This document shows positions 33,535 to 35,866 of a DNA stretch of 64,000 nucleotides, piece after piece (within the stretch, counting starts at the first letter, position 1; each line of letters starts with the position of its first letter). Source of the stretch: Minisyncoccota bacterium (GTDB taxonomy: Bacteria; Patescibacteriota; Minisyncoccia; Phycocordibacterales; GWA1-40-21); assembly GCA_041674925.1 (NCBI GenBank), contig JBAYUW010000003.1, positions 2,042 through 66,041 of the forward strand. The letters run 5' to 3'. A model generated the notes under the pieces. That model worked only from the letters and a program-made list of their open reading frames with translations, searched no databases and was not told the DNA's origin. A program made the translations under genes and the position numbers.

Positions 33535-33601
33535 TTATAGATTATTGTAATGATTGAAAAATTATAGAAAATAAGCTATTCTAGTAAAAGGCAAAAAGTT
33601 T

Positions 33602-33855
33602 GCCATTGTAGCTCAGTTGGTAGAGCACGTCATTGGTGGGTCGTAACCCCTGCCCATTTAGGTGGTAACGCTTAGATGAATCCCGAATAACGGTTAATAT
33701 CCTAATCTGGACAAGACCGTGGCGAATCATGTTTTGTGATTTAGCCCGAACGACTGACAAGGGTTTCCAATTTGGAAAAAGATACAGTCTAGTCCTCCCG
33801 CAAGGAGAGGTGTAAACGAATGACGAGGTCATCGGTTCAATCCCGATCAATGGCT
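33602..33855 (+). tRNA. tRNA-Thr(GGU) interrupted by a 181-nt group I intron (exons 33602-33637 and 33819-33855; CCA encoded at 33856-33858)
   Basis: 5' exon GCCATTG-TA-GCTC-AGTTGGTA-GAGC-A-CGTCA-TTGGT. 3' exon AA-TGACG-AGGTC-ATCGG-TTCAATC-CCGAT-CAATGGC-T. Joined, the loop is TTGGTAA, as in E. coli tRNA-Thr(GGU). The splice position is inferred from the terminal G and the loop length. Confidence 0.6.
33638..33818 (+). ncRNA. group I intron in the tRNA-Thr(GGU) anticodon loop (between positions 36 and 37)
   Basis: P7 GACTG...CAGTC, with AAAAAGATACAGTCTAGTCC (S-like) and CGAACGACTGACAAGGG (R-like). P9 hairpin CTCCC-GCAA-GGAGAG (GNRA loop). Terminal G at 33818. P1 pairing is not obvious by eye. 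Confidence 0.55.
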
Positions 33856-33857
33856 CC

Positions 33858-34901
33858 ATGTACAAACGCTTGTTAAAGCCGATTTTATTTAGGTTTAATC
33901 CAGAAAAAATTCACAATCTTTTTGTCTATGTCGGCCGATTTATGGGATCTTTTGGTCTCGGACGTTTTTTACTTTCACTATTATACGGCTATCGTGGTAA
34001 AGATATTTCCAAAACGGTGGATGGAGTTTATTACAAAACCCCCATTCTTTTATCAGCCGGCTTTGATTATGACGGACATTTGACGCAAGTGTTGCCTTCA
34101 CTTTCTTTTGGTGGGGTGGAGGTGGGTTCAGTGACGGCCAAACCTTGCGCTGGTAATCCCAAACCACGTCTGACTAGATTGCCTTTTAGTAAAAGTATTT
34201 TGGTTAATAAAGGCTTGAAAAATGATGGCGTGGACATTATTTTAACCCGCTTACAAAAAAAGAAAAAAATTAAAGATTTTGTAATTGGAATCAGTTTTGC
34301 CCGAACCAATGAAAAAGCAGCTTCGACGGTCGAGGCGGGGATTGCTGATTATGTTTACAGTTTAAAGAAAATTGTGGAAAGTAATCTTGGTGATTACTAT
34401 ACTATTAATATTTCTTGTCCTAATACTTTCAATGGCGAACCGTTTACGACGCCAGATTTATTAGAAAAACTTTTTATTGAAGTTGATAAAATACCGCGTA
34501 CGAAACCTTTATATGTAAAAATGCCCCTCAACGTGACAGATAATGTGTTTGTACAACTGCTCGGAGTTTTAAATCGCCACAACGCCCAAGGAGTGATTCT
34601 CGGCAACTTGCAAAAAGATTATACAACGATTGATAAGCGCGATTATATTCCGCAAAAATATGAAGGCGGTTTATCTGGTAAACCATGTGAAAATCGCTCC
34701 AATGAACTTATCACCTTAACCAAAAAAGAGTATGCTGATCGATTTACGGTGATTGGCTGTGGCGGAGTCTTTTCTTATGAAGACGCCAAGAAGAAATTTG
34801 ATCTCGGCGCGGATTTAATCCACATGATTACCGGGATGATTTACGAAGGCCCGGGTCTGATTAAAAGCATTTGCCAAGGTCTGGAAAGTGAAATAAGATA
34901 A
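33858..34901 (+). CDS. pyrD: dihydroorotate dehydrogenase (class 2, quinone-dependent-like)
   Basis: N-terminal MYKRLLKPILFRFNPEKIHNL resembles E. coli PyrD. GGVEVGSVTAKPCAGNPKPRL and the active-site ISCPNT. The start codon overlaps the tRNA CCA. Confidence 0.8.
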   Translation: MYKRLLKPILFRFNPEKIHNLFVYVGRFMGSFGLGRFLLSLLYGYRGKDISKTVDGVYYKTPILLSAGFDYDGHLTQVLPSLSFGGVEVGSVTAKPCAGNPKPRLTRLPFSKSILVNKGLKNDGVDIILTRLQKKKKIKDFVIGISFARTNEKAASTVEAGIADYVYSLKKIVESNLGDYYTINISCPNTFNGEPFTTPDLLEKLFIEVDKIPRTKPLYVKMPLNVTDNVFVQLLGVLNRHNAQGVILGNLQKDYTTIDKRDYIPQKYEGGLSGKPCENRSNELITLTKKEYADRFTVIGCGGVFSYEDAKKKFDLGADLIHMITGMIYEGPGLIKSICQGLESEIR

Positions 34902-34907
34902 GGGAGT

Positions 34908-34980
34908 GCCATCTTAGCTCAGTTGGTAGAGCGCATCTTTCGTAAAGATGAGGCCCGCAGTTCGATCCTGCGAGATGGCT
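34908..34980 (+). tRNA. tRNA-Thr (anticodon CGU)
   Basis: Acceptor GCCATCT/AGATGGC, D-arm GCTC-AGTTGGTA-GAGC. Anticodon stem CATCT/AGATG with loop TTCGTAA. T-arm CGCAG-TTCGATC-CTGCG, discriminator U. Confidence 0.85.
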
Positions 34981-34981
34981 C

Positions 34982-35866
34982 ATGTTGGAGCAAAACGACA
35001 AAAAGAAAAAGTTGACGGAATTGGAAATGGAGATGAATACCGTGGATTTTTGGAGTGATAAAAATCATGCTCAAGCAGTGATCAAAGAGATTGCTGATTT
35101 GAAAGCGGAAATCGCTGGGGTGGGGAAATATGACAGTGGTGATGCGATTTTGACGATCATGGCTGGCGCGGGTGGTATTGACGCTGAGGATTTTGCGCGG
35201 ATGCTCCTTCAAATGTATTTAAAATATTTTGATAAAAAAGGTTGGGCTTATCGGACCATTCATCAAAATGAAAATGATCATGGTGGTTTTCGAAACGTGA
35301 CCGTGGAAATTTCTGGTAAGGGATCTTACGGTGCTCTTAAAAAAGAATCTGGTGTGCATCGTTTAGTGCGAACATCGCCATTTAATGCCAAAGGCTTGCG
35401 TCACACTTCTTTTGCTTTAGTGGAGTTTATTCCAAAATTTGAAAAAGCCAGCGCCTCCGATTTTATAATTCCCGAAGATGAGTTGCGTTTGGAATTTTCT
35501 CGCTCTAGTGGTCCGGGCGGGCAAAACGTGAATAAAAAAGAAACGGCAGTGCGAGTGGTCCATATTCCGACCAACTTGGCCGTTCATGCGGATGGTGAGA
35601 GGTCGCAAGCGCAAAACAAAGAGAAAGCTTTGCAGATTTTACGCGCCAAACTTTACACAAAATATGAGGAAGATCGTCGAAAAAAAGAACAAGGCCTCTA
35701 TGTCGCAAAAACTATGGAGATTGAGTGGGGGAATCAGATTCGTTCATATGTCCTTCATCCTTATAAAATGGTCAAAGATCATCGGACTGATTTTGAAACT
35801 GCTCAAGTGGATAAAGTTTTGGAGGGAGAAATTGACGAGCTATTGGATGCCGAGCGCGATCTGTAG
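34982..35866 (+). CDS. prfB: peptide chain release factor 2 (short form, lacks N-terminal ~45 aa)
   Basis: The SPF tripeptide motif (RTSPFNAKG) marks RF2. GGQ motif SGPGGQNVNK. 294 aa. The ATG is one nucleotide after the tRNA-Thr 3' end. No in-frame UGA frameshift site. Confidence 0.8.
   Translation: MLEQNDKKKKLTELEMEMNTVDFWSDKNHAQAVIKEIADLKAEIAGVGKYDSGDAILTIMAGAGGIDAEDFARMLLQMYLKYFDKKGWAYRTIHQNENDHGGFRNVTVEISGKGSYGALKKESGVHRLVRTSPFNAKGLRHTSFALVEFIPKFEKASASDFIIPEDELRLEFSRSSGPGGQNVNKKETAVRVVHIPTNLAVHADGERSQAQNKEKALQILRAKLYTKYEEDRRKKEQGLYVAKTMEIEWGNQIRSYVLHPYKMVKDHRTDFETAQVDKVLEGEIDELLDAERDL

Follow-up and report, generated by a model that had tools for sequence, protein, structure and literature searches.

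Which transfer RNA (tRNA) reads the threonine codons ACU and ACC in a 64,000-nucleotide (nt) stretch of contig JBAYUW010000003.1 from a Minisyncoccota bacterium (GCA_041674925.1; hereafter the window), and what interrupts the gene that should encode it? ACU and ACC account for 501 of the 743 Thr codons in the long open reading frames (ORFs) of the window, a share from which we conclude that the host needs a tRNA-Thr(GGU); under standard decoding rules, these codons are unreadable by tRNA-Thr(CGU). A gene starting at position 33602 is missed both by ARAGORN at default settings and by Rfam at the gathering threshold, and six tRNAs are found elsewhere in the window. As judged from its sequence, the segment 33602–33858 is very probably a functional tRNA-Thr(GGU) gene of Patescibacteria (Paceibacteria/Parcubacteria-type), split at U36/A37 by a 181-nt group I intron without an endonuclease, which belongs to the ‘divergent’ tRNA-Thr 36/37 family and is predicted to splice.

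With its intron option, ARAGORN calls tRNA-Thr(ggt) with a 181-nt intron at 33602–33858 (i(37,181), site 36/37), and when 33602–33637 is joined computationally to 33819–33858, the product is a canonical tRNA-Thr(GGU) of 76 nt, whose anticodon loop reads UUGGUAA and whose CCA is encoded. A blastn comparison of 33540–33900 with the intron-less orthologous locus L001 returns two blocks, of 96.5% and 96.3% identity, which abut in L001 and break at 33637|33819 in the window, and the mature tRNA-Thr(GGU) sequence is identical across the window, L001 and two further orthologues (L002 and L220). Because the two L001 blocks abut and the mature tRNA is identical in intron-less orthologues, the insert is exactly 33638–33818 and the exons are undamaged. 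Read directly, the sequence offers a single junction that yields a 7-nt loop together with U at position −1 and G at the intron end. The initial annotation, made by eye, had named the same isoacceptor, exon ends (33637 and 33819), intron length and terminal G, all recovered here by ARAGORN and by the orthologue break, and the 36/37 position that it had given as a tentative 5′ splice site is set exactly by the L001 comparison.

That the insert is a group I intron, as had been proposed from the letters, is borne out by more than 180 relatives, by covariation in the helices from P1 to P9.0 and by the intron-less orthologues. Searched alone, the 351 nt of 33550–33900 align to the full length of Rfam model RF00028 (model positions 1–253) at 17.3 bits (E = 0.035), with the R-like block, the S-like block and P7 in register; these blocks and the P7 strands GACTG (33752–33756) and CAGTC (33785–33789) are where the initial annotation had read them. 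The gathering score of RF00028 is 50 bits, and a whole-window Rfam search at that threshold gives no match at the intron, so the cmsearch suggested earlier provides a full-length alignment but is not decisive alone. The score, far under the cut-off, explains why standard annotation misses the intron. A leave-one-out nhmmer profile built from 69 tRNA-Thr introns matches 33628–33828 end to end with 171.7 bits (E = 3.9e-52) and detects no second copy of the intron in the 64-kb window. Apart from the Rfam score, every group I feature that can be checked in silico is present.

The group I secondary structure was drawn by hand and counted on a MAFFT alignment of 70 family members that was not fitted to the structure (Table 1). 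Standard pairs are formed in 93.4% of cells, as opposed to 32–42% when the 3′ partners are slid by 1–3 columns. Compensatory changes are seen in 27 of the 49 pairs, and the covariation score of 0.404, compared with 0.146 in shuffles, is reached by none of 500 shuffles. Unguided RNAalifold recovers the exon anticodon stem, P1, P2 and P4–P9, and the minimum free energy (MFE) fold of the single sequence (z = −3.95) contains the exon anticodon stem, P2 and P4–P9, with P1 not in the proposed register.

P1, for which no convincing helix had been seen by eye, is now placed and covaries. Its exon half is G–C, G–C and U·G in all 70 members each; U36 was imposed by the search pattern, but the guide G facing it was not. 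In the intron half, one pair is G·U in 42 members, U–A in 22 and G–C in 6, and another is G–C in 40 and A–U in 28. Bulging U33651 gives a register that serves the window just as well, but it was set aside in favour of the continuous register, which fits all subfamilies column by column. P3, which forms a pseudoknot with P7, has C–G at its three positions in 70, 70 and 68 of the 70 members and, being invariant, carries no covariation information. By comparison with group I introns in general, guanosine presumably binds at the G33752–C33789 pair of P7. At the other end of the intron, both pairs of P9.0 covary (G–C in 52, A–U in 15 and G·U in 2; C–G in 35 and U–A in 33), 98.6% of cells being paired, and this pairing beside the terminal G fixes the 3′ splice site by a criterion internal to the intron. 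The GCAA-capped P9 of the initial annotation is present, but its pairing needs a bulged A.

The loop of P2 (L2) and the helix of P8 change together. Among 158 members examined, 35 combine a GAAA L2 loop with a CUAAG...UAUG motif in P8 that resembles the 11-nt receptor; the motif occurs in none of the 64 members with GUAA, GCAA or GCGA in L2, all of which, including the window intron, have a plain P8 helix. Because the type of L2 loop switches with the P8 motif, we propose an L2–P8 tertiary contact in which P8 is probably the receptor helix for the L2 tetraloop.

Table 1. Coordinates of the split tRNA-Thr(GGU) gene, its intron and neighbouring features in the window.
Feature	Position	Strand	Description and evidence
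Promoter-like site	33554–33582	+	TTGAAA-17 nt-TATTCT, ~20 nt 5′ of the tRNA start; weak, consensus scan only
5′ exon of tRNA-Thr(GGU)	33602–33637	+	tRNA positions 1–36, ending in anticodon G34 G35 U36; ARAGORN -i
Group I intron	33638–33818	+	181 nt, without ORF or homing endonuclease; exact blastn gap against L001, nhmmer profile, RF00028 alignment
P1	33635–33654	+	Exon G34 G35 U36 and intron G1–G3 (33635–33640) with guide CCUGCC (33649–33654); U36·G33652 wobble at the 5′ splice site
P2	33655–33678	+	10-bp hairpin, GNRA loop GUAA (33665–33668); compensatory changes in 9/10 pairs; RNAalifold, MFE fold
P3, 5′ strand	33682–33684	+	CCC, pairs with GGG 33761–33763, pseudoknot with P7; RF00028 agrees
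J3/4	33687–33689	+	AAU, joins P3 to P4
P4	33690–33720	+	ACGGU (33690–33694)/ACCGU (33716–33720); with P5 and J3/4 the P-like and Q-like blocks; P4 invariant 70/70; RNAalifold
P5	33699–33702/33709–33712	+	AUCC/GGAC, inside P4; compensatory changes in 3/4 pairs; RNAalifold
P6 and P6a	33721–33746	+	P6 (GGC/GCC) and P6a extension hairpin; first pair G–C in 61, A–U in 9; RNAalifold adds covarying pairs
P7, 5′ strand	33752–33756	+	GACUG in R-like block CGAACGACUGACAAGGG, pairs with CAGUC 33785–33789; invariant 70/70; RF00028, RNAalifold, MFE fold
P3, 3′ strand	33761–33763	+	GGG; pair counts on the 70-member alignment
P8	33764–33778	+	Hairpin UUUCC-AAUUU-GGAAA; compensatory changes in 5/5 pairs
S-like block	33779–33789	+	J8/7 AAGAUA (33779–33784) and P7 3′ strand CAGUC (33785–33789); near-invariant; aligned to RF00028 consensus gAAGAUAUAGUC
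P9.0, 5′ strand	33792–33793	+	GU, pairs with A33816–C33817, just before the terminal G
P9	33794–33810	+	CCUCCC-GCAA-GG(A)GAGG, GNRA loop 33800–33803, bulged A; compensatory changes in 4/6 pairs
Terminal guanosine (omega-G)	33818	+	G ends 71/71 genome and 88/88 metagenome inserts among the matches listed
3′ exon of tRNA-Thr(GGU)	33819–33858	+	tRNA positions 37–73 and encoded CCA (33856–33858); ARAGORN
pyrD	33858–34901	+	Class 2 dihydroorotate dehydrogenase; Pfam PF01180, E = 1.3e-52; homologues cover from residue 1
tRNA-Thr(CGU)	34908–34981	+	Intron-less paralogue; ARAGORN; Rfam 64.9 bits

Several observations weigh against this assignment and against a functional gene. The 17.3 bits with RF00028 stand against a gathering score of 50, and only 1 of 11 relatives (L006, 23.9 bits) reaches E ≤ 1 with the model. 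P1 is short, with three exon and three intron pairs, and some relatives pair better in a P1 register with one or two bulged bases. P3, P4 and P7 never vary, their support being conservation and analogy with the Rfam alignment, not covariation. A search for P10 gave nothing convincing, as no pairing of the guide with the 3′ exon is conserved; A37–U33651 can form in the window and not in the other subfamily. The self-splicing assays of Nakagawa et al. covered Asn and Asp introns only (PMC13011429). The window, moreover, is 64 kb, and a further intact tRNA-Thr(GGU) may lie elsewhere in the genome. The insert could then have inactivated the gene, leaving a dead tRNA-Thr(GGU) pseudogene with a non-splicing or degenerate remnant while another gene decodes ACY codons. 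The score far under the curated cut-off, the predicted status of splicing and the limited part of the genome in view would all suit such a history. We nevertheless judge it highly improbable: the exons are 100% identical to those of intact orthologues; the core elements, the U·G wobble, P9.0 and the terminal G are intact and match those of a family on which structural selection is clear; more than 180 loci keep this arrangement; ACY codons form two thirds of Thr codons; and a genome reportedly seldom has both an intron-bearing and an intron-less copy for a given anticodon (PMC13011429).

Anticodon loops also host introns that are spliced by proteins, and the insert might be of another kind, either an archaeal or eukaryal bulge-helix-bulge intron or a group II intron. 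We give this practically no credence. The site is 36/37 and not the canonical 37/38 of bulge-helix-bulge introns, and the fold of the insert is that of a group I core, with P, Q, R and S blocks, a P3/P7 pseudoknot and a terminal G in place and with covariation in that core. Group II introns are far longer than 181 nt, and none has been found in Patescibacteria (PMC13011429).

Taking the insert as a group I intron, catalysis would, by analogy, begin with the pairing of G34–G35–U36 and the first three intron bases with the guide CCUGCC to form P1, which would place the U36·G wobble at the cleavage site. The core would assemble from a P4–P5–P6 stack and a P3–P8–P7 stack joined through the P3/P7 pseudoknot, probably braced by the GNRA loops L2 (GUAA) and L9 (GCAA) docking on P8 and P5, respectively. 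Free guanosine or GTP bound in P7 would attack the U36|G+1 bond. The terminal G33818, positioned by P9.0 (GU 33792–33793 with AC 33816–33817), would then replace this guanosine, with the exon anticodon stem (C27–A31/U39–G43) probably holding the 3′ exon instead of a long P10, and the 3′-OH of U36 would attack the G33818|A37 bond to give ligated exons with the loop UUGGUAA. All of this could proceed without protein. Alternatively, splicing may need a host protein or chaperone, or be regulated, for example by the GTP pool, which would amount to RNA-level control of the tRNA-Thr supply. The ribozyme is very small (181 nt), P3 has three base pairs, P1 is short and P10 is lacking; in genomes with few regulators, Nakagawa et al. 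suggest speculatively, such introns may have a regulatory role (PMC13011429). Other small bacterial tRNA introns nonetheless self-splice, as the Asn and Asp introns of Patescibacteria did in vitro (PMC13011429), and no conserved intron-associated protein gene lies beside the locus, whose neighbours are pyrD and prfB. Dependence on a protein or on regulation is thus unlikely.

The family to which the intron belongs was collected by two pattern scans. In genomes, one per species, we used the exon-only pattern GCTCARYYGGTAGAGCNNNNNNTTGGTB, that is, the 5′ half of tRNA-Thr(GGU) followed by a base other than A37. It gives 96 loci, 71 of which carry an insert of 169–266 nt at 36/37, and all 71 inserts end in G followed by A37. 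Their hosts are nearly all labelled Patescibacteria, among them Saccharibacteria, Paceibacteria, Parcubacteria and Kaiser-, Nomura-, Taylor-, Vogel- and Moranbacteria. Across the inserts, the blocks TGCCCA, GAATCCCGAAT, ACGGTTAA, AAGACCGTGGC, CGAACGACTGACAAGGG and AAGATACAGTCTA are invariant. One exon-pattern match, a 104-nt ‘insert’ in L012 (Halioglobus), ends in C and is non-homologous; we excluded it as a chance match. In metagenomes, the intron-core pattern AAGACCGTRGC, followed after a gap of 8–38 nt by CGAACGACTGACAAGGG, identifies at least 119 loci, of which at least 110 are tRNA-Thr(GGU) split at 36/37. Their boundaries were set by profile alignment and anticodon-stem geometry; a brute-force enumeration of U/G junctions, with ARAGORN run on each, was too permissive, returning many isotypes per locus, and was dropped. 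The inserts counted for the terminal G (Table 1) were delimited by tRNA geometry alone. Most metagenome members among the matches listed have A32 (loop AUGGU|AA), not U32, and some of the introns begin with A. Because the exon pattern misses A32 loops and introns starting with A, the genome scan understates the size of the family. In all, we recovered more than 180 members, two of them in protein-coding genes, which goes beyond the published description.

Intron length is 169–214 nt in all but three of the members measured. The 266-nt member, in L033 (4295–4580, minus strand), has an extra segment of ~80 nt located 3′ of P9 and before the terminal GGUGUAAACG; at ~80 nt, this segment is too short to be an endonuclease gene. 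In L028, labelled Bdellovibrionales, the tRNA-Thr intron region is identical to that of L043, labelled Saccharibacteria, probably an error in metagenome-assembled genome (MAG) binning or labelling. Run with its intron option on the listed metagenome relatives, ARAGORN calls Arg(GCG) with a 34/35 site in 42 of 119, His in 6, Pro in 5 and others including Gln. We rejected these as further host tRNAs, because the calls come from misplaced boundaries in tRNA-Thr(GGU), a behaviour also reported in Table 1 of PMC13011429.

The class itself is already described: these are the ‘divergent’ tRNA-Thr(GGU) 36/37 introns of Patescibacteria, and the window intron is a fresh instance. Nakagawa et al. 2026 (mSystems, PMC13011429) report such introns in three complete genomes (GCA_001029635.1, GCA_016700375.1 and GCA_030583745.1) and attribute them to Castelle et al. 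2018. They are missed by RF00028 and found by the gpI_bact_tRNA model of tFind (Williams 2020, bioRxiv 10.1101/2020.01.27.920355; PMC13011429). The published introns have in common with the window intron the phylum, tRNA, anticodon and 36/37 site, a similar size, the lack of a homing endonuclease and their invisibility to RF00028, and the same Arg(GCG) 34/35 miscalls by ARAGORN that we see in the relatives (Table 1, PMC13011429); the tie is thus one of site, host and tool behaviour and not of sequence alignment. Bacterial tRNA introns in that study span 184–894 nt, the 181 nt of the window intron lying just below.

Among relatives in the same phylum, the Patescibacteria 35/36 tRNA introns of Nakagawa et al. 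2026 likewise lie in the anticodon loop, are mostly endonuclease-free and cluster with the Thr introns at high bootstrap (PMC13011429). They differ in sitting one position earlier, in being detected by RF00028 and in having been shown experimentally to self-splice. The classical self-splicing bacterial introns, in Azoarcus tRNA-Ile(CAU), Agrobacterium and cyanobacterial tRNA-Arg(CCU) 36/37, cyanobacterial tRNA-Leu(UAA) and tRNA-fMet (Reinhold-Hurek & Shub 1992; Zaug et al. 1993, cited in PMC13011429), resemble the window intron in their anticodon-loop site, in placing anticodon bases in P1, in relying on the exon anticodon stem and in a minimal P1–P9 layout without P5abc and with GNRA loops on P2 and P9; the tRNA-Arg introns also have the 36/37 site. 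The classical introns, unlike the window intron, are of class IC(3), are found by RF00028 and occupy other host tRNAs in other phyla.

Where the window intron falls among group I subgroups is less straightforward. It shows no P7.1/P7.2: J7/3 is only ACAA (33757–33760), and with 4 nt there and the 3′ strand of P3 abutting P8 there is no room for these helices. Subgroup IA, as Michel and Westhof reportedly defined it in 1990, has extra P7.1/P7.2 between P7 and the 3′ strand of P3 with P8. The minimal layout of the intron, with its candidate L2–P8 and L9–P5 contacts, is presumably like that of Azoarcus, which we take as a lead. With GNRA loops on P2 and P9 and no P5abc, the architecture looks IC3-like. 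In the tree of PMC13011429, a long branch leads to the Thr introns, which fall with the rest of the Patescibacteria tRNA introns in an IA clade, and none of these introns is assigned to IC.

How the intron came to the locus was approached through orthologous loci, fetched with pyrD proteins 68–93% identical to that of the window (L001, L002, L004 and L220–L223), as the initial annotation had suggested comparing intron presence at such loci. The gene order tRNA-Thr(GGU), pyrD, tRNA-Thr(CGU) is kept in all seven, and in all seven syntenic orthologues tRNA-Thr(GGU) is uninterrupted. The closest pyrD homologues, the best of which is 93% identical, are named Patescibacteria, Parcubacteria, Paceibacterota or Minisyncoccia, in keeping with a Patescibacteria host. 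A neighbour-joining tree of pyrD pairs the window with the intron-less L001 as its sister and nests it among intron-less relatives. Since the intron is absent from all seven syntenic relatives and the tree places the window within them, we favour a recent gain on the window's branch over retention with multiple losses, and consider it the probable history, with another Patescibacterium the most likely source. Two points temper it: the tree is a simple neighbour-joining one that carries no support values, and the closest sampled intron is ~80–87% identical, depending on gap counting, so that no donor is identified.

The same distance to the nearest intron, with no fresh donor visible, is what would be expected if the intron were instead ancestral to the clade and had been lost precisely and independently in the sampled relatives, with no recent mobility. 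The family is very widespread in Patescibacteria, and distant relatives with the order intron-bearing tRNA-Thr(GGU), tRNA, prfB exist (for example, L075 and L088). Identity in the host prfB correlates weakly and positively with identity in the intron (rho = 0.21), a correlation that does not decide between vertical and horizontal spread. A history of losses alone requires at least five independent base-perfect deletions, as opposed to one gain, and clean loss from the anticodon loop has been argued to be hard (Nakagawa et al., PMC13011429), which makes ancestral presence a rather unlikely course. The evidence thus favours a recent gain without a homing endonuclease, beyond what has been published for the family.

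In two family loci among the metagenome matches listed, the intron core is found elsewhere than in a tRNA gene. In L176 (Ga0070749_10027978, minus strand; oriented positions 1344–1534), a 191-nt intron follows a 5′ exon ending in ...CAGGU; its removal restores a 344-amino-acid, Gly-rich, tail-fibre-like ORF (VPAPSVTYTFSNSTTADATQV|NQNFTDLVNG...), and the unspliced frame stops at once. In L158 (Ga0315293_10008326, from about 325), a small ORF is broken by the core after ...TGCGGT. Like the Thr anticodon, each of the two 5′ exons has GGU at its end, which fits the same 3-nt guide GCC. The restored ORF of L176 is an indirect sign that splicing may be real in the family. The gain in the window would post-date the split from the relative with 96% identical flanks, and, because the coding-gene relatives have GGU-ending 5′ exons, the ~180-nt endonuclease-free family might even be actively mobile today, by reverse splicing through the 3-nt guide GCC or by recombination capture across very short, universally conserved tRNA exons. 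We hold this only as a tentative and somewhat doubtful idea; if true, these introns would rank with the smallest ribozymes that are mobile in nature and would offer a tractable model of a minimal group I intron.

Downstream of the split gene, the ATG of pyrD (33858) shares its A with the CCA of tRNA-Thr(GGU), an overlap found also in L001 and L220. The start on the last CCA base, already read in the initial annotation, agrees with the ORF at 33858 and an N terminus conserved from residue 1 in the orthologues. Because CCA and ATG overlap, the bases needed to mature the 3′ end of the tRNA would be contested by pyrD translation. At the junctions between tRNA-Thr genes and protein starts (33856–33860 and 34981–34984), we see no Shine-Dalgarno sequence. 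The tRNA-Thr(CGU) paralogue, which had been placed at 34908–34980, is present about 1 kb downstream and has an identical D-arm, but its acceptor strand matches at 5 of 7 positions (GCCATCT compared with GCCATTG) and is not near-identical as had been claimed. A release-factor ORF with PCRF and RF-1 domains starts at 34982, directly 3′ of this tRNA. A prfB-like release-factor gene adjoins the intron-bearing tRNA-Thr(GGU) in 80 fetched loci (for example, L075 2538–3762 and L088 5768–6920), and in L075 the order is tRNA-Thr(GGU), a second tRNA and prfB. In the clade of the window, pyrD appears to have been inserted between the two tRNAs. Elsewhere in the window, ARAGORN places a tRNA-Ile with anticodon UAU at 1326–1399 on the minus strand (Rfam 75.7 bits), which is unusual for bacteria. 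Bacteria normally read AUA through a lysidine-modified CAU tRNA.

Since default tRNA finders and Rfam miss the gene at 33602, the genome would be scored as having no tRNA for two thirds of its Thr codons, and split tRNAs missed in this way distort estimates of genome completeness in Patescibacteria (also PMC13011429). No new kind of element is revealed. The locus provides two alleles, with and without the intron, that compare unusually cleanly, their exons being identical and their flanks 96% identical, and its family, with ribozymes among the smallest of their kind, offers more than 180 members with rich covariation and a tetraloop/receptor switch. These are material for studies of minimal ribozymes and of how endonuclease-free group I introns are gained and lost; further value lies in the family members in protein-coding genes and in the evidence favouring recent gain without a homing endonuclease.

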